Shown here piece after piece: positions 12,114-47,405 of a stretch of DNA of 64,000 bases. The translations under genes and the position numbers were made by a program. The stretch is from Escherichia phage LPEK22, in sequence record OK283619.1; one strand, written 5' to 3'. The stretch's first letter is position 1; each line of letters opens with the position of its first letter. The notes beneath the pieces were generated by a model that had not been told where the DNA came from, did no database searches, and saw nothing but the letters and a program-made list of their open reading frames with translations.

Positions 12114-12908
12114 ATGGCCATTCTAAAACTTGGCAACCGAGGTTCTGAAGTCAAAGCACTTCAACAAAGCCTCAACAAAATCGGTTTCTCCCTTACAGCC
12201 GATGGCATATTTGGTAAGGCAACAGAGAATGCTGTCAAATCCGTTCAGGCAGGTGCTGGATTGGTTATTGATGGTATTGCTGGACCAAAGACCTTCTATG
12301 CTATCCGCAACGCTGGAGACGCTCATCAGGAACATCTGACCGAAGCGGACTTGGTTGACGCAGCACGTGAACTTGGTGTTGAGCTGGCCAGTATGAAAGC
12401 GGTGAACCAGGTAGAATCCCGTGGCACGGGTTTTACCAAAACTGGCAAGATCAAAACTCTGTTTGAGCGCCACATCATGTACAAAAAGGTGACGGCCAAA
12501 TTCGGGCAAGCAAGAGCCAATGCTCTGTACCAACTCTACCCAACATTGGTTAACCCCAATTCTGGCGGGTATATCGGCGGAGACGCGGAGTTGGAACGCC
12601 TTCAGGGTGCAATCACCCTTGACGAGGACTGCGCTTACGAGAGTGCTTCCTACGGCCTATTCCAGATCATGGGGTTCAACTGCCAAATCTGTGGATATCC
12701 AAATGCCAAAGAGATGTTCACTGATTTCCTGACTGGTGAACGCGCTCACCTTCTGGCATTTGTCAAGTTCATCAAGGCTGATGCCAATATGTGGAAAGCC
12801 CTGAAGAACAAGAATTGGGCCGAGTTTGCTCGTCGGTACAATGGTCCGGCATATGCGAAAAACCAGTATGATACTAAACTGGCGGCAGCATACAAGAGTT
12901 TCTGCTAA
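12114..12908 (+). CDS. endolysin: N-terminal peptidoglycan-binding domain plus C-terminal muramidase-like (DUF3380-type) domain
   Basis: PG_binding_1-like LKLGNRGSEVKALQQSLNKIGF...DGIFGKATENAV; C-terminal NWAEFARRYNGPAYAKNQYD; GGAGG SD; terminator downstream. Confidence 0.7.
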   Translation: MAILKLGNRGSEVKALQQSLNKIGFSLTADGIFGKATENAVKSVQAGAGLVIDGIAGPKTFYAIRNAGDAHQEHLTEADLVDAARELGVELASMKAVNQVESRGTGFTKTGKIKTLFERHIMYKKVTAKFGQARANALYQLYPTLVNPNSGGYIGGDAELERLQGAITLDEDCAYESASYGLFQIMGFNCQICGYPNAKEMFTDFLTGERAHLLAFVKFIKADANMWKALKNKNWAEFARRYNGPAYAKNQYDTKLAAAYKSFC

Positions 12909-18428: not shown

Positions 18429-18767
18429 ATGTACAAATTCCCGATATTAGAAACAGTGTACTCTGTTCACAAAAAGGAAGGTCCATTATTTGAAAATTTG
18501 GATATTCTGTTAAAGGAAAATGTCCGTATCCCTCTGGTTCTAAAGGGAAAGCAAATAGGATATAGCCATGACTGCCAAATAATGCGTTCTGAAGGCACCA
18601 ACGTCTTACGCATCCGTCTGACATTTGTGTTGACAGGTAATCTGGACGGTATGGTGGTTAATCTGAAACCAACCACCATAGTCCACAGAACGGGTGGGAA
18701 AATATTATATCGTTTATTAACTCATTTTGAGTTGGTGACAAAATGCTCTGCCACGGACGTTCTTTAA
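18429..18767 (+). CDS. hypothetical protein (112 aa)
   Basis: ORF, tightly coupled. Confidence 0.4.
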   Translation: MYKFPILETVYSVHKKEGPLFENLDILLKENVRIPLVLKGKQIGYSHDCQIMRSEGTNVLRIRLTFVLTGNLDGMVVNLKPTTIVHRTGGKILYRLLTHFELVTKCSATDVL

Positions 18768-19181
18768 TCAATTTGTCCGTTTCAACCATATGGTGTCTGT
18801 TATCGGCTCTGGGTTGTTGACCACATAGAACGTGATGGTTACGCCCAGAGAATGATAATCGTCCGACAATGATACATCAACAGATTGCAATTCAGCTCTT
18901 GGCTCAAAAAGAGCAATGGCATCTTCAACTTTGTTCTTCACGTCGACCTGTATCGTGGGATTTGTGTTTTCTCCCAACATGGTATACAACCCCGCCCCAA
19001 TACTCGGATACGTCGGCCAATCACCTACCGTCGACATTACTATATTACGCACAGATTGTAGTACAGCATAAATGCCTGTTTTCTTAGTGACATCTTTGGT
19101 GACCGGATGCATGCCAAACTTCAGGTCAATGTCCTTGTACTCTTTCATGTTAAACCCCTTTGGATATTGCCTCTCCAGCAC
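18768..19181 (-). CDS. baseplate wedge protein (T4 gp25 / GPW family)
   Basis: 137 aa; pattern ...DWPTYPSIGAGLY...LFEPRAELQSVDVSL...ITFYVVNNPEP parallels T4 gp25 as recalled. Confidence 0.6.
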   Translation of the reverse strand: MLERQYPKGFNMKEYKDIDLKFGMHPVTKDVTKKTGIYAVLQSVRNIVMSTVGDWPTYPSIGAGLYTMLGENTNPTIQVDVKNKVEDAIALFEPRAELQSVDVSLSDDYHSLGVTITFYVVNNPEPITDTIWLKRTN

Positions 19182-19212
19182 GAGAGGGCATTATCTGCCC
19201 TCACCAGTGTAA

Positions 19213-20838
19213 TCATGCGCCTTTACCACCAAAATTGCCGCCGTTATCCTCTAACTCCGGTTTTATATCAATTGGACCTGGGCCTGTAGTTGTTACAGGA
19301 GTTGCCCCCGCACGTGAGGCGGCGCGACCAGCGCCTTCAGCATATTTGATGTTGCCTTCAATAGTCTGCGCCACCGACAACTTATCACAAACTATTTCAC
19401 TAGCCAGTATTTTAGGCACTTTCAAAGTATTGGAAACTTCCAACATTTCACAGATGAGACGCAACACGTTCTGTGCCTGTATCTCAGCCAATTGGGAAAA
19501 TTTCATCAACGCTGTTCCAGCGACCACATTGGAATAGTTAGAAGAGTGTAAGTGGTAAACTTCTCCTTTCTTGCGCTGTACTTCAGTCCCACCAATTGTC
19601 AGGTTATGATCACCCCCCACATAATAACGTTTGTCGAACATCGTCAGGTCATAATGATCTTTGACTGATTTATTAACAACATCACCGTCAGGAAGCATTT
19701 GCTTGTAAGACCCAGAAGAGTGCATCCAATGCAAACGTTCCCCGCCTGGAGTGTCATCGACCTCCATAATATGCCCAGCGCGAGAAGCCATAACATTGTT
19801 GTATGGATAACGAGACCCCCCAGCCGAAGGAACCGATACCTCTCCTGTGTTGTCAATATCCTGAACACGACCAGAAGGAGGCGGTGTTTCTTGGACTTTC
19901 GGGGTACGATCCGGAATAGGTTCAGACCATTTACCATTTTGTTGTGCCGGAGCTGCTGAAGCTGTAGTTGCTGGACCTGGCCAACGATAACCCAACACGG
20001 ATGAGCGGCTAAAACGGCTCACCTTCACAGAATCGGATTGGTTTCCCCCGATACACCAAACGTAGTTGGCGTCAAATTTCTGAACGAATGCAACGTGACC
20101 GAATGTCGGGTTGTTCCCGCGCCGGAACACTACAACAGCGCCGTAACGTGGTTCTGACAGAGGAGACCCCCATTGTAAATATGAACGAGCCAAAGCAGAA
20201 CGTGTTGATGTATATCCGGCCTGTATCAGAACCCATCCGACAAACGACGCACACCAACTAACTTCATCTTCTGACGCCCCCAGGGAAGTTGTCTTATGAT
20301 ATTCCAATATCCTTGGGTTGTTATTGAACTTACCAGAATATTCTTTGACACCCAATTCCCCACGAGCCACGGTCATCCACTTCTCAGGATCATATCCGTC
20401 TACTGGTGGTTGTGGATCCGGTTGCGGTTCATCCTCAATCTTAACAGGAACATTCTCGACGGCATTATACTTCTGCCTTTCTATAGATTGAACGACCTGA
20501 CCCAGCGCCAATGGGTTTGTATCTGACCCATCTGTTGGTGTTGCTGCTGGCCATACCCATGCAATACGGATGTTCTGATATGCTTCATCCAAAGCAAACC
20601 CCATGACGTCAGAGCCGACAGTGATACCCGTCGGAGACCAGCCTAAACCTGCCGAGGAGGCGTTAGATGCTGGCATAAGCATTTTACCCCAAGGCAATAA
20701 TTCGGTAGGCAGGAGAGTGGTATCCTCCGTGTGTACCCCATAGATGCGTACTGCGACGCGCCCGTTTTGATCGGGATCATTCACGTCTTCAACGCGCCCG
20801 TAAAACCAACGCAAGTTGTCTAACATATTGAAACCCAT
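19213..20838 (-). CDS. baseplate hub / cell-puncturing protein (gp5-like) with internal Cys/His peptidoglycan-hydrolase-like domain
   Basis: N-terminal gp5 OB-domain signature WFYGRVEDVNDPDQNGRVAVRIYGVH...LPWG; central SWCASFVGWVL...FGHVAFVQ (CHAP / NlpC-P60-like). Confidence 0.6.
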   Translation of the reverse strand: MGFNMLDNLRWFYGRVEDVNDPDQNGRVAVRIYGVHTEDTTLLPTELLPWGKMLMPASNASSAGLGWSPTGITVGSDVMGFALDEAYQNIRIAWVWPAATPTDGSDTNPLALGQVVQSIERQKYNAVENVPVKIEDEPQPDPQPPVDGYDPEKWMTVARGELGVKEYSGKFNNNPRILEYHKTTSLGASEDEVSWCASFVGWVLIQAGYTSTRSALARSYLQWGSPLSEPRYGAVVVFRRGNNPTFGHVAFVQKFDANYVWCIGGNQSDSVKVSRFSRSSVLGYRWPGPATTASAAPAQQNGKWSEPIPDRTPKVQETPPPSGRVQDIDNTGEVSVPSAGGSRYPYNNVMASRAGHIMEVDDTPGGERLHWMHSSGSYKQMLPDGDVVNKSVKDHYDLTMFDKRYYVGGDHNLTIGGTEVQRKKGEVYHLHSSNYSNVVAGTALMKFSQLAEIQAQNVLRLICEMLEVSNTLKVPKILASEIVCDKLSVAQTIEGNIKYAEGAGRAASRAGATPVTTTGPGPIDIKPELEDNGGNFGGKGA

Positions 20839-20892
20839 TAGTCAATTAGAATCATGTGATATTTATGGCGGGGATTTGAAATCTGTCGAATA

Positions 20893-20925
20893 ATATATTA
20901 TAGGAAGCTCTGCTTCCGTTCAACC
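20893..20925 (-). promoter_or_regulatory. candidate promoter for gp5-like gene with palindrome in spacer
   Basis: Minus strand TTGAAC-GGAAGCAGAGCTTCC-TATAAT about 45-75 nt upstream of ATG 20838. Confidence 0.35.
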
Positions 20926-21165
20926 TTTATTCTTTTCGTTCCTACTCGCTGAAGCTCGTAACACCGCCTTGACAGGCAGTCCCATTCCAATGCCATGGAG
21001 GCATAAAGGCGAGGAAAATACTGTACACCTCAGAACATGCGTAGAAAAGGATTATTTTTGCTTCAAAACAAATTCAAACCCCAATTACACAACACTTACT
21101 TCAGCAACAACGGTGTTATAGCAATTTAAGGTTAAACGTTCCTGTCTTAACCTATAAAACAGGTA

Positions 21166-21193
21166 AGCAAAGAAAACCCCACATTACGTGGGG
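21166..21193 (-). terminator. rho-independent terminator (minus strand)
   Basis: Minus strand CCCCAC-loop-GTGGGG followed by TTTTCTTTG. Confidence 0.55.
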
Positions 21194-21344
21194 TTGGAAG
21201 ATTTCTTAGACAATCTAATTTTCAGTGTCTCGGTAAGCAAATCAAGATGCCACGGCATCGATTCACTGATTTCAAATATGCTATAGCCGTGTGCCTTTAA
21301 TTCGTCACACATCACAAAATAGGAGAGTAAATCAATTTCAAAAA

Positions 21345-22151
21345 TTAAATGAAAATCTCGGTGACACTGTTAAATTTGACTTCGTGTTCTTTCCCACACG
21401 AAGGGCATTTAATTTTTGTCGCGTAACGAATACGCGGAATCTTTTTAAAGAAATCATTCGAAATGTCCTGAACAATCTCAGATTCAATATTGTCCCCGAC
21501 CCATTTGACAAATTCATCCTTAATGCGTTGGCGTTCTTTAGCAACTTCTGGATCGATACCAGGTTCAGCCGGATTTTCCACCTTCCAAACCTGACCATCG
21601 TCGTCATACAGACAATCGATAAAGGTGGCAATCATTTGTTCAACAGAGGATGCTTCATTAAGCACTGAGGCATCCGAGAAGGACGGCTGGCGCATCTTTA
21701 TATGATAACCACCTGGTAGATCAAACGTCTCCCTGAAGCCTTCTGGGGACACGCATTTTACCTGATTGAGCGGGATCGGTAACACAAGCTCTTGACCACA
21801 ATCTTTAAGGCCAGAAACTGGTTCTTCACCACCTTCATTGGTTTCGGCTTGAACTTTGTTATTACATTTGTAACGTATCTTCATGACCTCGCCGATAGAT
21901 ATACAGCGCATCTTTAAAAATACTTCTTCAGTAACACCGATTGGCAGTTTACTAAAGGGAACGCCAGCATCAACACAACTGTCAAATAGTTGCTCCAATG
22001 TTGCCACGCGCTCACTCATAGGAGTGTTCGGATCAGCAACCTGAAGTAACATGGTCTGTTGCCCTGCTGTAAAGGCGCGGTATTTGATCACAGTCGGCCA
22101 GAAATCACTTTTATGTGTTCTCTCAGTTTTGGGCAATGATGGTAAATTCAT
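21345..22151 (-). CDS. late-expressed hypothetical structural protein with C-terminal zinc ribbon (possibly baseplate-associated)
   Basis: Exact TATAAATA late-promoter box about 28 nt upstream of ATG plus GGAGA SD; C-terminal CPSCGKEH; adjacent to gp5-like gene. Confidence 0.5.
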   Translation of the reverse strand: MNLPSLPKTERTHKSDFWPTVIKYRAFTAGQQTMLLQVADPNTPMSERVATLEQLFDSCVDAGVPFSKLPIGVTEEVFLKMRCISIGEVMKIRYKCNNKVQAETNEGGEEPVSGLKDCGQELVLPIPLNQVKCVSPEGFRETFDLPGGYHIKMRQPSFSDASVLNEASSVEQMIATFIDCLYDDDGQVWKVENPAEPGIDPEVAKERQRIKDEFVKWVGDNIESEIVQDISNDFFKKIPRIRYATKIKCPSCGKEHEVKFNSVTEIFI

Positions 22152-22179
22152 AATGTATCTCCACGGTATATTGTAATTG

Positions 22180-22187
22180 TATTTATA
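22180..22187 (-). promoter_or_regulatory. T4-type late promoter box TATAAATA
   Basis: Exact TATAAATA on minus strand about 28 nt upstream of ATG of gene 21345..22151, with GGAGA SD between. Confidence 0.55.
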
Positions 22188-22200
22188 ACGAGGACTGAAA

Positions 22201-22725
22201 ATGCACGCGTTCTGTTTCAGTAAAGTGGGGGAGCAACTCGCAATTAATTATCCGGATGCAAACACGGACTTTTTTGTATTACTCACAGATTTTGCAAATA
22301 AATTGGGGATAAAGAATGTCGCCATGACCGTGTCCGATATGAAATTCGGGTGGCTGGGAGTTAAAGATTTATTGAATTATGGATTCAATGTGATTATCGT
22401 TGATCCAACGTACAGCCCAATTGACGAGGAAGATGTTATTCCAGTTTGGGTTCAACGAGACATAAACACTCTGGATAAGCATTATCCCGATTGTGTCATC
22501 ATTGGCGAATTAATACCGTATTTTCATAAACGTCGTCGCCTTGAAACAATTAAAAGTTATTTTCAAGATAATGATTGTGGATATAAAATGGATGTCCTTA
22601 CGAGCGGTTGGGTTGTGAAGAATACCACAGGCAATGCCGACCGAATTACTTCTCGTCTTTATGAATATGTTAAAGAACGGGATTATGAACTGGAGAACAA
22701 TAATGCCAAACGTAGAACGCGCTGA
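22201..22725 (+). CDS. hypothetical protein (174 aa)
   Basis: ORF with GAGGA SD. Confidence 0.45.
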   Translation: MHAFCFSKVGEQLAINYPDANTDFFVLLTDFANKLGIKNVAMTVSDMKFGWLGVKDLLNYGFNVIIVDPTYSPIDEEDVIPVWVQRDINTLDKHYPDCVIIGELIPYFHKRRRLETIKSYFQDNDCGYKMDVLTSGWVVKNTTGNADRITSRLYEYVKERDYELENNNAKRRTR

Positions 22726-25984: not shown

Positions 25985-26011
25985 AAGCCCCTTCGGGGGC
26001 TTTTTAGTTTT
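25985..26011 (+). terminator. strong rho-independent terminator after gp32 gene (likely bidirectional)
   Basis: AAGCCCC-TTCG-GGGGCTT followed by TTTTAGTTTTT. Confidence 0.75.
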
Positions 26012-26948
26012 TAACGACGTCCTGCAACAATCCGAGTAAACTACTCTTCTCAGACGCCGTCAGGTTATCATTGCCTAATATATCCCTCTGGATGCCGATA
26101 GAGATCCTTTCGAAGTCTGCCAGGCTGATACCCGCCAAATTATTTACAAGCTGATCGAGTTGCTTGTAGGCCAGTAGGGCTTCACCTGTAAAGTTTCCTT
26201 CCTTAATCTTTTTATACAGCTGTCCGGCTTTTGACGCTGCGGTTTCCCAATCTCCGGAAGCAAGAGCATCAGCAATGCCCAAAGGAAGAAAGTCGCTGGC
26301 GAGGCTGCGCGTTTCATATTCAGTCTCCGATAATACTTTATTGTAAGAGAACGATATATTGTACTGGTTAAATTGGTCGGCGGCACTTTTGTCTAGGTCG
26401 ATGGAACTGAAGTTAATAGGATGAGCCTCAGTCACATAAACGCGATGAACAACCTGATCTTCCGTATCCATCTGCTCTATACAAATGTCTGTAACGAAGT
26501 CTTCATAATAACCCATCTTGGTTGTGTATGGGTCGAATATCAGGTTCTTCCATTTGTCCATGACCGACTTTTCATAATAATCGTTGGCGAGGAGGAACGA
26601 CAACTCCAGATCAACGTTCGTCTTGTTATTTGGCATTTTAATGTGGTTGCCGTTGTTGGTCATGGGAGTAGTGTCAATCCCTGTACCAGGTAAAGATGCG
26701 ACCATACACATCATTTGTAAGGAACGAGACGTCTGGTTTGTCCCTCCAAAGAAAGCGTTTACAATACGGGCGCTTTGTTTGAACAGATCCCCAAATGATG
26801 AAGATGAAGGATATGCGTTCCCATCATTTGCTAGTGTTGCATTGGAATCAAATATTCCAGGCGGCAACGGAATTGTAACACGAAATCTGTTCTTGCGGGA
26901 AATACCCCGTTGAAGCAGTTGCGTTAGAAAATTGCGATAGTCTTCCAC
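26004..26948 (-). CDS. hypothetical protein; start uncertain (GTG at 26948 with GGAG SD proposed; ORF-track start at 27143 would overlap divergent gene)
   Basis: C-terminal two thirds look protein-like; N-terminal part of the track ORF is antisense to gene at 27003. Confidence 0.4.
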   Translation of the reverse strand: MEDYRNFLTQLLQRGISRKNRFRVTIPLPPGIFDSNATLANDGNAYPSSSSFGDLFKQSARIVNAFFGGTNQTSRSLQMMCMVASLPGTGIDTTPMTNNGNHIKMPNNKTNVDLELSFLLANDYYEKSVMDKWKNLIFDPYTTKMGYYEDFVTDICIEQMDTEDQVVHRVYVTEAHPINFSSIDLDKSAADQFNQYNISFSYNKVLSETEYETRSLASDFLPLGIADALASGDWETAASKAGQLYKKIKEGNFTGEALLAYKQLDQLVNNLAGISLADFERISIGIQRDILGNDNLTASEKSSLLGLLQDVVKN

Positions 26949-27002
26949 GATGAGGACTCCATTTAAATAATATATCTGTTGATATTTATAAGGAGTTGAC
27001 AA

Positions 27003-27707
27003 ATGGCTAAGAACGCTATGGGTGAAGAAGACCCGTTGTTGCTTCCCGCCGAGATGGACGCCCCAGAACTGGTCAAGCGTTACATCCGCAAATATCGTCA
27101 ACATTTTGGGCCGGAAGCGAAGCGTAATATTCGTCGTTCTCATGTATGGTTTATGGAGCGCGTATCGAAAGATGCCAATTTATCCCCCAACCACATGATG
27201 AAGGCGTTTGCTGAAAATAAACGTCCTGTCCAGGGTGTGCGCTATATTGTTGGTCGCATGTATTATTTCAAATATGATGCGCTGACCAAAGATGAACTCC
27301 CGTATTGGGATATGTATCCCCTGGTATTCTTCTTCAATTTTGTGAAGGGGGACGGGGTGAAATTCGGTGAACGTGGTGTAACCTATCTTTATGGTCTAAA
27401 CCTCCATTATTTACCGCCTAAACTCAGATTGTTGGTGTTTGAAGATCTTATCAAGTTGAGGAACGAAAGAGCGTACCGTTCTAAAACTCGTTTGAGACTT
27501 ACTTGGGATGCCCTGAAACGGTTCGCCAATCACCCTCTGTACAACCATTGTGTGAAACTGTACCGCGCTGATCAATTTCGTTCACAGCTTTATGAGATTG
27601 AGCCTCAATACTGGGAAGTTGTTTTGTTTATGCGCACTGCTCGATTCCAGAAACAGAGCCAGATGTCTGTTTGGAAAGACGCTCGTCGTAAACACAAAAA
27701 TGGTTAG
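27003..27707 (+). CDS. hypothetical protein (234 aa)
   Basis: ORF with AAGGAG SD. Confidence 0.5.
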   Translation: MAKNAMGEEDPLLLPAEMDAPELVKRYIRKYRQHFGPEAKRNIRRSHVWFMERVSKDANLSPNHMMKAFAENKRPVQGVRYIVGRMYYFKYDALTKDELPYWDMYPLVFFFNFVKGDGVKFGERGVTYLYGLNLHYLPPKLRLLVFEDLIKLRNERAYRSKTRLRLTWDALKRFANHPLYNHCVKLYRADQFRSQLYEIEPQYWEVVLFMRTARFQKQSQMSVWKDARRKHKNG

Positions 27708-42529: not shown

Positions 42530-44470
42530 TTACCAATCCCAGAGAATGCGCCCTGTATCAGTACGGTTGGACGGCTCCAACTGTGAACTATTGAAGTTGT
42601 TCGTCGTACTGACTTTCTTCGAGTTGTCCACATTTTGTTGTACTGGAACCACAACACTGGCTGGCGGGTTAGCATAGGCGGATTTAACTTCTTCGATGTT
42701 ATTGGCTGCTCTTCCTTGAACCGGATAAGCCCCGCCCAGAGTACCTCCCCCAATCCCTGCGTATGCGTCTTTCAATTGTGAAGTTCTATCCGTAACGTTG
42801 ACAGCGTCTGAGGACACCCCAGAAGGCATTGGAGTTAACGTGCTGATATTGGCATTGGGTTGTGCTGGTGATTGGCTGCTTGGCGGCGTAGACGCATTCT
42901 CAGGAGCCTTATCGTCTTGGCTGATTAGCATAGACTGTCTTGCTTCCGCCATTTTGTTCCTGGCTGCTTCACCACCCAGAGCATCAGGTATGATACTCAC
43001 GAATTTATCCACGATATCAAACATGGCATTGGTTATGGCATTCAACATATTAAAGAATGGTTTCTTCACGTTTTCCGCAAATCCTTTCTTCATATCTTCA
43101 ACGACTTTATTTGCAGCCGCCATGCCATCATCAATCAATCCTGATATCCCGCCCGTTACCCAATCAACCAATTTTATCAATTGGCCTTGTAAGTTGTCTG
43201 CAAGTTTACCAGGGATTTCGGTCAGTGATGTACTCTTCCCGATACCCGCAAACAAATCGTTGGTGACCCAATCAACAATCGAGTTCAACCAACGCACGGG
43301 CGCTTCGGTCATTTTCAGCACTTGTTCACGGAACGCCTTTCCAAACCCAGCATTGTTCCATCCGAATATTTCAGCAACCCAATCAGCGAGATCCCCGAAA
43401 CTACCGACCAGCTCTGTTATCCCTGCCTGAACCCGATCAACGATCGATACTTGCGCTTTACCAAGGATTTCTTTAGCATTAAAGAAACCTTTACCGAATT
43501 CAAATACAGATGTTATTAACGCCAGAGGTCCAACTCGAAGCATCTTGGTTGCTGCTTTCAGAGGCGCAAGCAACCCGCCGATCCCAGCACCAAACCCCAT
43601 GAATAATTTAATGAAGCCACCAACAAGTTTTAATGGGGACATCAGGAGTTTTAACGCGCCCAGTCCAAGGAGTGCCCCCAGCGCCGCGCCTAACCCAGAA
43701 GATTGACCATCTTGTTTAGGCTCAGACGGAGGGATAGAACCAGCCTCTGGGTTGTTCTTGTTTTCCTTACCTTCTTCGCCACGACGGAATTTCTCTTCTT
43801 CTCTATATTTTTGATCACTTTCATAGATACGTGTCAGAGTATCATTAAGATCTTCGTTCATGTATCCCAATTTGTCATCAATGCTGTCGAGGCGGGTAAC
43901 AGTTTCGTTACTGGCATCTTTATTGAAATCCAGCGTGTCCTTATGTGTTTGAAGCATTATGTCAGTCAGGTTTACGATCTCCCCTCCGACCAACGCCAGC
44001 TTATCCTTTAATCCATCAAGGCGTTCAAGACTATCTTCGTTGGCCGCACCTAATTGATCTGATATCATGTCAAGATATTCAACTGACATGTCGTCAACCG
44101 GACCATTCGCCGCTTCACCAAATTTTTCGATCTTGGTGGCGATACGCATCAGTTCTTCATTGCCATCCTTTGTTAGACTGACGGTGTCTTTCATCCAAGT
44201 GCTGTAATCCCTTGTGAAAATAGGACTGACGCGGACAAACCCACCAACAATATCATTCACCGATGGGAATTTAATTGGCGGGACTTTCTGCTCCTGATTA
44301 GACGCCTGGCGTGTCTTCAGAGATTGCAGTTGTTTGTTGACATCGGCGAGCTGTTTATTCGTCTCGGATTGGGCGCGCAATTGCTTGCGCTCCATCATTT
44401 CTTTTTTGATTTTATCCAAAACCTTGACGATGTCTTGCTGCCCTGGTGTCGGTTGATTGTTATCTGCCAT
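42530..44470 (-). CDS. tail tape-measure-like / baseplate hub length-determining protein (gp29-like)
   Basis: 646 aa, N-terminal coiled coil, Gly-rich hydrophobic stretch GLGAALGALLGLGALKLL...GFGAGIGGLLAPL. Confidence 0.5.
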   Translation of the reverse strand: MADNNQPTPGQQDIVKVLDKIKKEMMERKQLRAQSETNKQLADVNKQLQSLKTRQASNQEQKVPPIKFPSVNDIVGGFVRVSPIFTRDYSTWMKDTVSLTKDGNEELMRIATKIEKFGEAANGPVDDMSVEYLDMISDQLGAANEDSLERLDGLKDKLALVGGEIVNLTDIMLQTHKDTLDFNKDASNETVTRLDSIDDKLGYMNEDLNDTLTRIYESDQKYREEEKFRRGEEGKENKNNPEAGSIPPSEPKQDGQSSGLGAALGALLGLGALKLLMSPLKLVGGFIKLFMGFGAGIGGLLAPLKAATKMLRVGPLALITSVFEFGKGFFNAKEILGKAQVSIVDRVQAGITELVGSFGDLADWVAEIFGWNNAGFGKAFREQVLKMTEAPVRWLNSIVDWVTNDLFAGIGKSTSLTEIPGKLADNLQGQLIKLVDWVTGGISGLIDDGMAAANKVVEDMKKGFAENVKKPFFNMLNAITNAMFDIVDKFVSIIPDALGGEAARNKMAEARQSMLISQDDKAPENASTPPSSQSPAQPNANISTLTPMPSGVSSDAVNVTDRTSQLKDAYAGIGGGTLGGAYPVQGRAANNIEEVKSAYANPPASVVVPVQQNVDNSKKVSTTNNFNSSQLEPSNRTDTGRILWDW

Positions 44471-44480
44471 TTGTCACCTC

Positions 44481-45869
44481 TCAGACCTTCTGGGCTTGTC
44501 CTTTCTCTATTGGCGTCGGAGTTGGTGTAGAAGCCACAGTTTGACCAGTCTGAGGCGGTAAGACCTTCTGGATCATACTATCTTTGGCAATCTCGGCGAC
44601 GCATTGATAATCATTTGTCAGGCGTGAAATCTTATGGCGTATCTTTGTGACGATATAATGGCCTGTTGATAACTTACTTAACTCGGCAATGTTTTCATTA
44701 GATTTCGGGCGGTTCGACAAATCTTCAATATAATAAACCTGCCCAACATTCAGACGGTTATCCCCCACGACCAGTAAACGCATAACCGTTGACGCGAGGC
44801 TGAATTCTATAACGCGTCGTGCGTAATCTATTTGTTCGGCACCATCCGGTTGCGCTTCAATGTACCTAACGTTCTCGCGGTCGAATTGATCAGAGAACAA
44901 AGGGAACGGATCAAGGTGAGCAGTGCTGTCAAACCATTCTGAATAAATGCGTTGGGTCGCTGTCGTGGATTTTGTACTAAAGTCATACACGCGCTCGTTC
45001 ACTGCCAAGATATCCCGATAATTCGCCATGTACTGATCACGCGCCAGTTTCTTTTCAGCCTTGATGATCGTCCGCATAAAACGTTCGGAGTTGAAGTTAT
45101 TGTCTTGCATTAACGGGGCATCTTGAGGATCACGGAAGAATTTCTTTTCCGCGCTTGCCTCTTGTTTCTCTTCAGCAGTCATAGACTGGTTGCCCTGGTT
45201 GAACAATGTTGTCATGCTTTTGAAGTGATAACCCGTAAAGTCTTCATAGAAAACGAACGGCATGAATAATTCGTCATATGCACGGCTGGCCATATAATCT
45301 ATGGAGCGGAGTACAGGCCAAAGAGGGGTAGCGAACCTTTCTTGTATCCCATATGAAGGATCTATGTCTTCAAATTTGGTGCGTGAATTCAGTTGCTCAA
45401 AGATCTTAGCTGCCATCTCAGAATAAGAACCGCTTAATCCAACAGATTTACGCAACATGCTATCTCGATACGCGTCTGTTGTCACCAAGTGTAACCAAAA
45501 TGCCTTTTTCGAAGAAGAGTTCGATTCGTCAGCAACTCTCCCCACCCGACTGACTCGTAATGAAAGTGTAGTGTAATCAGAAGCTGCAGGCGATTTGAAC
45601 GATACCACTACTTCCTCACCTCCGAGGATTGGCATCGTATCCAATATATCCCAGCCTTCTTTGATCAGAATATTAGCTGTCAGCGACGGTGAAGCATTCC
45701 CTTCCAGACCAAGATCCTGATATACGTTGAATTCTTGAAACAACGATGAAAGGTCATAAGGCTTGGGAGTACCGCCTTCAGGCGTGTGTGGTAATATCGC
45801 CATATATTTCAAATCAAATGTTGTGGACGGAGTTAAAATTCCGTCCTGGGATTCTTTATTTTCGATCAT
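44481..45869 (-). CDS. baseplate hub-like structural protein (gp27-like?)
   Basis: Position in tail/baseplate block; product name is a guess. Confidence 0.35.
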   Translation of the reverse strand: MIENKESQDGILTPSTTFDLKYMAILPHTPEGGTPKPYDLSSLFQEFNVYQDLGLEGNASPSLTANILIKEGWDILDTMPILGGEEVVVSFKSPAASDYTTLSLRVSRVGRVADESNSSSKKAFWLHLVTTDAYRDSMLRKSVGLSGSYSEMAAKIFEQLNSRTKFEDIDPSYGIQERFATPLWPVLRSIDYMASRAYDELFMPFVFYEDFTGYHFKSMTTLFNQGNQSMTAEEKQEASAEKKFFRDPQDAPLMQDNNFNSERFMRTIIKAEKKLARDQYMANYRDILAVNERVYDFSTKSTTATQRIYSEWFDSTAHLDPFPLFSDQFDRENVRYIEAQPDGAEQIDYARRVIEFSLASTVMRLLVVGDNRLNVGQVYYIEDLSNRPKSNENIAELSKLSTGHYIVTKIRHKISRLTNDYQCVAEIAKDSMIQKVLPPQTGQTVASTPTPTPIEKGQAQKV

Positions 45870-46423
45870 TTGGTCAGCTCCTGTTCCAGCTGATTAACAA
45901 AGGAAGAAACATAATCTGGGTCTAGAACCTGAATATTCCGTTTGGCTTCGTTTTTGTTTATAGCATCATCATGATATGTAATACCTGTCAGACCATAGTT
46001 GGCGATAATCGTGGAATCATCCATAGAACCAAGGCCATATGCTAAACGTATTGCTCTAGGATCTGTTTCATGACCGAATTCGTCAACGTAGTATTTCACA
46101 TCCCACATTCCGTCAAGGCCGTATCGATCCGTCAGTTCTTCAATGATACGGCGCTCTGGTTTTGGCCAGTCCTCTGCGATGTCCATGATACCATTGATAA
46201 GACATGGGATCCAAAACAGCTCGAAGGAACCGTAGACGCGTTCGGCAAAAGACCTTGGGGTTTCCCCATCGAAAACAGTATACGGCAGGAGAAGCCCTTC
46301 TATGTCCCTAATTTTCTTAACAACCATAACCCGTCGTGTTAAGTTCTGTAACAGGACTTGGTCATCCTCTTTGACACCAATTAATTGATGCCACACGAGT
46401 GGAAATTTCTCAAAATATTTCAT
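45866..46423 (-). CDS. baseplate/tail structural protein (185 aa)
   Basis: Start at internal ATG with AAGGAG SD; within structural block. Confidence 0.4.
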   Translation of the reverse strand: MKYFEKFPLVWHQLIGVKEDDQVLLQNLTRRVMVVKKIRDIEGLLLPYTVFDGETPRSFAERVYGSFELFWIPCLINGIMDIAEDWPKPERRIIEELTDRYGLDGMWDVKYYVDEFGHETDPRAIRLAYGLGSMDDSTIIANYGLTGITYHDDAINKNEAKRNIQVLDPDYVSSFVNQLEQELTK

Positions 46424-46436
46424 GGCATCTTTCTCC

Positions 46437-47405
46437 TTAGAAGCTGTCGCCTTCGGTATCAAAGCGGCCTTTGTGCAACGGTTCTAGTTCTATAAACGTC
46501 ATGTCGATTTGTGTCGACACGATGCTGTCATCTTTGTGTACAGCATATGAAGAGTCAGGCGTCTCGTTGACAAACATATTTGATAGGACGCAAGTCGATA
46601 TCCGATGCAACCATTTGTTGCGTTCTCCCTGGACCATGAACGTGATATCAAACGTGGATGGATGAAGATAGAATGCGCTGGAATTCTTGTTGTATTTGTA
46701 TTCTGGATACATGTGCATCTTGAATAAACGGATAATCTCCCGCACCATTTTCGCCTCTTTTTGCGATCTTGGAGTGAATTTGAATGTGAACGGGATTTCT
46801 CGGTTGCGCACCCCTTGGAAAATCATTTCCACATACGGGTTGGTCATCGTACCTGTAAACAATTCTAATGTGTCATGAGCATTAATTGTCGGCAAGAAAG
46901 GAATTGCTTCCGAAGCAGATTGAATGGCCTTTGTTGCCGCAAATCTCCCCATTTCTTTCCCAACATTCAAAGCATCCCCAAGTTTGAATTGACTCATATC
47001 TTGGGCGGCGCGTGATAAGAATTGGGCACCCATACCTGCTAATCCCAACTCGGAGCCGTTCCAGCCAACGCCATAGTTGGTTGTAATGGATTCGGGCATA
47101 CACAACACAATTGACTCGTTAGAGCGGACATGACGCGCCCAAGCATATTTGCTAATAGAACCCGATTTAGAGCCGTAAACCACAGGAGTCTTACCCAATG
47201 GATTTTGTATCGGATTTTCGACGGTTTGGGTTGTGGTGTCTCCATATGAAGAACCAGATATTCGGTTGATGTTGAATAGAACATAATGGCCGAGGGTTTT
47301 ACCCCCTGTTATGTCTAAAGGATAGACCAATTGCTTCTGAGACTTGGCCAAGCCTTTTGTGTTCAGAACTTTGATCTTATCGATGGTCGACTTGAAATTC
47401 GCCAT
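46437..47405 (-). CDS. baseplate tail-tube-associated protein (gp48/gp54-like?)
   Basis: 322 aa, first gene of minus-strand structural block; family assignment tentative. Confidence 0.35.
   Translation of the reverse strand: MANFKSTIDKIKVLNTKGLAKSQKQLVYPLDITGGKTLGHYVLFNINRISGSSYGDTTTQTVENPIQNPLGKTPVVYGSKSGSISKYAWARHVRSNESIVLCMPESITTNYGVGWNGSELGLAGMGAQFLSRAAQDMSQFKLGDALNVGKEMGRFAATKAIQSASEAIPFLPTINAHDTLELFTGTMTNPYVEMIFQGVRNREIPFTFKFTPRSQKEAKMVREIIRLFKMHMYPEYKYNKNSSAFYLHPSTFDITFMVQGERNKWLHRISTCVLSNMFVNETPDSSYAVHKDDSIVSTQIDMTFIELEPLHKGRFDTEGDSF

Follow-up and report, generated by a model that had tools for sequence, protein, structure and literature searches.

A gp5-type baseplate spike protein of Escherichia phage LPEK22 with a predicted NlpC/P60-CHAP cysteine peptidase domain in the position of the T4 lysozyme

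Which wall-cutting enzyme is carried by the cell-puncturing spike of Escherichia phage LPEK22? The question is raised by a minus-strand gene found in a 64,000-nucleotide (nt) stretch of the LPEK22 sequence record OK283619.1 (hereafter, the window). The gene (19213..20838) is a single open reading frame (ORF) that encodes 541 amino acids (aa) from the ATG at position 20838. An earlier sequence-only reading had described its product as a gp5-like cell-puncturing protein, in which a Cys/His domain of the CHAP/NlpC-P60 type replaces the lysozyme. The results presented here agree with this description: very likely, the protein is the central cell-puncturing spike of the contractile tail of a Kuttervirus (Vi01/CBA120-type), and its enzyme is an NlpC/P60-CHAP cysteine peptidase. 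All of the motifs pointed out in that reading are present, namely, WFYGRVEDVNDPDQNGRVAVRIYGVH, LPWG, SWCASFVGW (containing Cys196) and FGHVAFV (containing His248), which begin at residues 11, 48, 194 and 246, respectively.

Bioinformatics analysis revealed that the protein is built on the scaffold of T4 gp5 (Table 1). The N-terminal OB-fold domain matches Gp5_OB (PF06714) with an E-value of 6.2e-10, which is over the curated cut-off of Pfam, and aligns with T4 gp5 residues 6–91 at an E-value of about 1e-11. Towards the other end, residues 343–450 align with residues 385–493 of T4 gp5 in a profile search (E-value, 3e-18), and hhalign matches them to T4-like gp5 with a probability of 98% and an identity of 39% over 93 columns. 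Judged by its sequence, this gp5C-like region is homologous to the start of the triple-stranded beta-helix of T4 gp5. The T4 gp5 structures are matched at an E-value of about 1e-30, with the match restricted to residues 4–87 and 339–436. The matches to OB, CHAP, TIGR02594 and T4 gp5 all lie far beyond chance level. Together with the baseplate neighbours of the gene and the literature reports of orthologs in virions (see below), the OB domain and the gp5C-like region bear out the description of the product as a gp5-like cell-puncturing protein.

The segments on either side of the central domain are conserved as well. In an alignment of 19 spike sequences, the columns of the post-OB segment are nearly invariant, and its 'DTN.L..G' stretch aligns with residues 126–138 of T4 gp5. 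In the linker that follows the central domain (residues 287–342), N301, W304, E306, P307, I308, R311 and P313 are nearly invariant in the same alignment. A full-length AlphaFold2 (AF2) monomer model was built from this alignment; the predicted local distance difference test score (pLDDT) is about 77 for the OB domain and low for the post-OB segment and the linker 287–342. The latter is the positional counterpart of the T4 gp5 linker with the Ser351/Ala352 maturation cut, and, by analogy with it, we infer that proteolytic processing may take place there.

Between these flanking parts, in the position that the lysozyme occupies in T4 gp5, lies the cysteine peptidase-like domain. It matches CHAP in Pfam (E-value, 3.3e-10; 40.7 bits versus a cut-off of 26) and TIGR02594 in NCBIfam (E-value, 8.5e-39; 132.9 bits versus a cut-off of 70.55), the latter over profile positions 2–132 of 132. 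An AF2 model of the central domain, based on an alignment of 41 TIGR02594 relatives, reached a pLDDT of 93.1 and a predicted template modelling score (pTM) of 0.89. In a Foldseek search with this model against PDB, the top matches were NlpC/P60 and CHAP domains only, the neighbours being the Clostridioides difficile autolysins Acd33800 and Acd24020, the CHAP domains of LysGH15 and LysK, MepS, and LytE. A viral structure library yielded 44 significant matches to the central domain, with a spike homolog from Serratia phage 3M ranking first; all but one of them (43 out of 44) are unnamed, CHAP/TIGR02594/NlpC-P60, lysin or tail proteins, and the remaining one is labelled as a transcriptional regulator. 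These results support a papain-like alpha+beta Cys/His peptidase fold of the NlpC/P60-CHAP superfamily (Pfam clan CL0125), TIGR02594 subfamily. The replacement of lysozyme claimed in the sequence-only reading is thus backed by the CHAP and TIGR02594 matches, the confident model, its NlpC/P60-CHAP neighbours, and the alignment of the two key residues described next. The check by structure prediction proposed there was also run, and the central domain did not model as a lysozyme fold.

The predicted catalytic residues are Cys196, as the nucleophile, and His248, as the base; the codons of both were checked. Among the 41 TIGR02594 homologs, 90% or more retain Cys196, and His248, Gly265, Asn266 and Gln267 are invariant. 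None of these five residues varies among the 19 spike homologs, whose overall identity falls as low as 34%. In the family profile, Cys196 and His248 fall on the catalytic Cys–His pair of CwlO and of CD630_03720, and His248 corresponds to the histidine of the catalytic 'HVG' motif in NlpC/P60 enzymes. In the model of the central domain, Cys196 opens the helix 57–67 (residues 196–206 of the protein), and His248 sits in the strand 108–116. Asn266 and Gln267 are located 18–19 residues past His248, a spacing known for CHAP domains, so that either of them is a plausible third catalytic residue.

A T4-type lysozyme (GH24) was rejected as the identity of the central domain. No match to Phage_lysozyme (PF00959) was found in the spike protein by Pfam at an E-value of 0.1 or lower, the lysozyme part of T4 gp5 (residues about 174–339) stayed unaligned with it, and no lysozyme fold was found among the structural neighbours. 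By its scaffold, the protein is thus a homolog of gp5, but it is not a 'tail lysozyme', because the central T4-type lysozyme domain is missing from it.

A change of fold also bears on the bond that is cut. That this bond would differ from the one cut by lysozyme, as the sequence-only reading had implied, is a reasonable inference from the fold. The gamma-D-Glu-meso-DAP bond (DAP, diaminopimelic acid) appears to be the most probable target of the central domain, because, in structure, this domain lies closest to the canonical NlpC/P60 D,L-endopeptidases. Several points weigh against this reading of the enzyme and of the spike that carries it. The choice of bond comes from the ranking of fold neighbours only; Pfam scores the central domain as CHAP, not as NLPC_P60; and the spacing from the His to the Asn/Gln pair resembles that of CHAP domains, a group that includes MurNAc-L-Ala amidases. 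The literature that was searched held no enzymatic or structural work on the spike protein or on any TIGR02594 member. As for the scaffold, residues 451–541 gave no match in PDB by profile search or in T4-like gp5 by hhalign, the homology ending at about residue 450, and the full-length monomer model (mean pLDDT of 47; under 50 for the last 250 residues) is uninformative for the needle. Moreover, tblastn searches of the window with gp5.4 (PAAR) and gp5.1 of RB18 returned chance-level hits only, the window being ~40% of the roughly 158-kb genome.

With the Pfam assignment and the CHAP-like spacing on its side and the NlpC/P60 endopeptidases as the nearest structural neighbours against it, a different specificity of the same spike and fold, that of an N-acetylmuramoyl-L-alanine amidase or of a DD-endopeptidase acting on mDAP-D-Ala cross-links, is possible but doubtful. 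Much less probable is a central domain that serves as a catalytically dead structural or peptidoglycan-binding module. The lack of measured activity in the searched literature would fit such a module, as would the fact that the lysozyme of T4 gp5 is dispensable under some laboratory conditions, but Cys196, His248, Asn266 and Gln267 are invariant among the spike homologs and conserved in the wider family, as would be expected if catalysis were under selection.

The reported presence of related proteins in virions agrees with a structural role. A passage of Kutter 2011 (PMC3184105) cites the ViI ortholog as present in the virion proteome, and mass spectrometry (PMC10892097) detected gp13 of Sajous1, a possible ortholog of the LPEK22 protein that is listed under the name 'Tail associated lysozyme'. 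That the protein is not a virion component but an endolysin for lysis from within, as could be suggested by the 45–57% identity of its central domain to small stand-alone TIGR02594 proteins, many of which are fused to PG_binding_1, LysM or SH3 as endolysins are, and by the label 'cell wall-associated hydrolase' in some database records, was rejected as extremely improbable in view of the OB and gp5C domains flanking the enzyme domain, the position of the gene among baseplate genes, these two virion reports, and a separate muramidase endolysin encoded elsewhere in the window.

A virion-borne spike with a peptidase domain could act in the following way. No Kuttervirus baseplate structure was found in the literature searched. 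Kanamaru et al. are said to have provided, in 2002, the model for the trimeric assembly of such spikes on the hub with T4 gp5, and a trimeric needle is assumed here from the homology to that protein. By analogy, three copies would assemble, with their N-terminal OB domains docked below the tail tube on the hub of the baseplate (in T4, on the gp27 hub), their C-terminal parts intertwined into a needle, and their enzyme domains placed laterally. Contraction of the sheath would drive the needle through the outer membrane and carry the enzyme domains into the periplasm. There, the papain-like peptidase, in which Cys196 would act as the nucleophile, His248 as the base, and either Asn266 or Gln267 would complete the triad, would cut the peptide stems of peptidoglycan, and the resulting local opening would let the tail tube pass.

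The C-terminal 91 residues (451–541) presumably make up the distal portion of the spike, or its tip. They end with the motif L-x-D-N-G-G-N-F, of which L529, D531, G533, G534, N535 and F536 are conserved columns. We consider it unlikely, even when both options are taken together, that the spike tip as well as the enzyme differs from T4 gp5, or that the TIGR02594 domain has a bond specificity so far undescribed for virion-borne enzymes of phages with Gram-negative hosts; residues 451–541 could be a tip of a new type that attacks the membrane, or a self-contained cap standing in for a separate PAAR protein. In homologs of 605–617 aa from Ackermannviridae of the Serratia/Erwinia type (P0134–P0142), the motif is followed by ~75 more residues, in which a low-complexity Ser/Ala/Thr stretch precedes a conserved end, P-x-A-S...V-I-I-L-R...S-N-G-x-T-W-E; this extension has no match in Pfam.

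A search with a 3.5-kb stretch around the spike gene matched 274 phage records, of which 250 cover at least 80% of it. The best matches are Salmonella phages of the genus Kuttervirus (Ackermannviridae), with identities of 99.3–99.7%, and the window belongs to this genus (Vi01/CBA120-type). At the protein level, the spike is identical to that of SFP10 (100%), shares 98% identity with that of Vi01, and matches orf092 of CBA120 in 534 out of 537 residues. Translation probably begins at Met5 (ATG at 20826), for a product of 537 aa, because this start is used by 15 out of the 19 aligned homologs and in the annotations of CBA120 and BSP101. In public databases, the spike protein cluster carries PF05257 and PF06714, and one NCBI copy is named 'TIGR02594 family protein'.

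The architecture itself is already known, so the novelty implied in the sequence-only reading does not hold: the exchange of lysozyme for a peptidase was published in 2011 for CBA120 orf092. Kutter et al. (2011; Virol J 8:430, PMC3184105) described orf092 as a 537-aa gp5 homolog without the usual lysozyme, with a CHAP domain (TIGR02594/NlpC_P60 superfamily) at residues 150–282 flanked by T4 gp5-like regions at 3–109 and 334–437. In the same year, a 541-aa protein of PhiSH19 was listed as 'Gp5 OB family & CHAP domain' (Hooton et al. 2011, Virol J 8:498). The proteins of CBA120, Vi01 and PhiSH19 ('tail-associated lysozyme') are essentially the same as that of LPEK22, with no substantive difference. 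What is added here is a confident fold model, the assignment of the catalytic residues, and a C-terminal part (residues 451–541) without known relatives.

Comparison with T4 gp5 (PDB entries 1K28, 1PDL and 5IV5) shows homology in the OB domain and in the first part of the C-terminal beta-helix region, insertion of the enzyme domain at the same place, and a gene that is likewise associated with the baseplate. The two proteins differ in the enzyme, a GH24 lysozyme in T4 gp5 versus an NlpC/P60-CHAP cysteine peptidase-type domain in the LPEK22 spike, and in the C-terminal 91 residues, which are unrelated. Unlike T4 gp5, the spike gene has no adjacent gp5.1 or gp5.4 (PAAR), its neighbours being gp26-like and gp25-like.

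The wider TIGR02594 family shares with the spike domain the invariant residues D191, W195, H248, G265-N266-Q267 and R285. Its members, which span phage-like and chromosomal contexts, are mostly proteins of 137–250 aa, either stand-alone or fused to peptidoglycan-binding domains, whereas the spike domain is embedded in a larger scaffold. A C-terminal TIGR02594 domain has also been described in a predicted VgrG-linked effector of the type VI secretion system of Stenotrophomonas (PMC13055248). Two stand-alone TIGR02594 genes were viewed in their surroundings: one (L003, 360–1261) lies in a phage-like run of small co-oriented genes, the other (L004, 8001–8983) in a bacterial chromosomal neighbourhood, and each is followed by an overlapping gene of about 160–175 aa with no Pfam family, whose product might be a partner (for example, an immunity protein or a spanin-type protein). 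The 'Gp5' of Vibrio phage ICP1 was considered as a second case and rejected; it is 238 aa long and has only the TIGR02594 module in common with the spike. The gene in ICP1_2005_A (HQ641352; L002, 2752–3468) sits among nrd and phoH genes, and its name was apparently transferred in annotation from the spikes of the Vi01 type.

Peptidases are found at other tail tips as well, such as the diffocin Hub-Hydrolase CD1368 (8V3W), the hub of Staphylococcus phage 812 (Peptidase C51/CHAP; 9EUF, 9EUM), and the tail tip lysin gp10 of Andhra (8EJ5). These enzymes act on Gram-positive walls, belong to other hub or tip architectures, not to the gp5 OB plus beta-helix spike, and share 10–18% sequence identity with the central domain. 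Closer in design are metagenomic gp5-like proteins, which combine the same Gp5_OB scaffold (27–48% identity over the OB part) with an exchangeable wall-degrading module. P0145 (644 aa) has Gp5_OB, an SLT transglycosylase and CHAP in series, followed by a Gp5_trimer_C-like region; P0148 has Gp5_OB and Peptidase_M15_4; and others carry Peptidase_M15_3, Phage_lysozyme or Phage_lysozyme2 modules. The wall-cutting module of the gp5-type spike is, thus, exchangeable, and versions with a lysozyme, CHAP/NlpC-P60, an M15 peptidase or SLT exist. Vi01/CBA120-type phages are widely used for the biocontrol of Salmonella and E. coli O157. The entry enzyme of these phages would escape lysozyme-specific inhibitors, and the spike enzyme could serve as a peptidase-type enzybiotic module; neither implication is new in principle.

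Table 1. Features of the spike gene of Escherichia phage LPEK22 and of its surroundings in the window.
Feature	Position	Strand	Basis or remark
Whole gene: gp5-type baseplate central spike protein	19213..20838	-	ORF; PHROG 430, E-value 5.5e-158
N-terminal OB-fold domain, residues 5–100	20539..20826	-	Pfam Gp5_OB; T4 gp5 6–91
Post-OB segment (DTNPLALGQVV...), then Pro/Glu-rich linker, residues 101–153	20380..20538	-	Alignment
TIGR02594/CHAP (NlpC/P60-superfamily) domain, residues 154–286	19981..20379	-	In T4 gp5 lysozyme position
Cys196 codon, predicted catalytic nucleophile	20251..20253	-	Conservation and alignment; codon checked
His248 codon, predicted catalytic base	20095..20097	-	Conservation and alignment; codon checked
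Asn266-Gln267 codons (GGNQ motif), candidate third polar triad member	20038..20043	-	Conservation, spacing
Pro/Ala/Thr-rich linker, residues 287–342, with conserved NGKWSEPIPDRTP	19813..19980	-	Spike alignment
gp5C-like region, residues 343–450	19489..19812	-	Homology to T4 gp5 385–493
C-terminal 91 residues (451–541) and stop codon	19213..19488	-	No match outside Ackermannviridae spikes
Upstream neighbour: T4 gp26-type baseplate hub subunit, 268 aa	21345..22151	-	T4_baseplate PF12322, E-value 1e-51; PHROG 150 'baseplate hub', E-value 1.1e-63
Downstream neighbour: gp25-like baseplate wedge protein, 126 aa	18768..19148	-	GPW_gp25 PF04965, E-value 1.2e-8; PHROG 261/43 'baseplate wedge subunit'
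Further tail genes: gp48-like, gp53-like, 462-aa tail protein, 646-aa protein	42530..47405	-	
Endolysin: PG_binding_1 and N-acetylmuramidase	12114..12908	+	PF11860, E-value 3.7e-58
43-aa ORF	21184..21315	-	PHROG 9633, unknown function
Terminator-like hairpin, AACCCCACgtaatGTGGGGTT and T-run	21195..21175	-	Directly after 43-aa ORF
CATAAATA box, 7/8 match to T4 late-promoter box TATAAATA	20860..20867	-	29 nt upstream of ATG 20838; consensus match only
Perfect TATAAATA box	22180–22187	-	36 nt upstream of gp26-like hub gene
Perfect TATAAATA box	26983–26990	-	About 35 nt upstream of annotated tail tube gene start

The spike gene lies among baseplate genes, being flanked by the gp26-like and gp25-like genes (Table 1); the gp25-like neighbour also carries a baseplate wedge annotation in BSP101 and CBA120. 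The endolysin gene adjoins phoH and nrdA. In the CBA120 paper, no lysis enzyme had been identified as of 2011 (Kutter et al. 2011, PMC3184105). With a separate muramidase endolysin and a spike peptidase, LPEK22 would have distinct exit and entry enzymes, that is, a glycosidase for exit and the predicted cysteine peptidase on the spike for entry.

Between the small gene upstream and the spike gene, about 345 nt (20839–21183, minus strand) are without a convincing ORF. No Rfam match was found across the 64-kb window at the gathering thresholds, including the 336 untranslated nt ahead of the spike gene. A scan of positions 18600–22300 for sigma-70 promoters and terminators gave counts at the level of shuffled sequence, and only the terminator-like hairpin is well placed. 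According to Kutter 2011 (PMC3184105), no late promoter had at that time been identified for the ViI-like phages. The two perfect TATAAATA boxes listed in Table 1 are the only ones in the window, and both are on the minus strand; their number is below the roughly four expected by chance, as estimated from base composition. It is their placement, not their count, that points to a candidate late-promoter role, and as such it is suggestive.

The longest ORF of the tail tube-type gene (26004–27143, minus strand) encodes 379 aa. Its first 65 codons are probably untranslated, because the similarity to the PHROG begins at residue 67, and the protein annotated in BSP101 has 314 aa.

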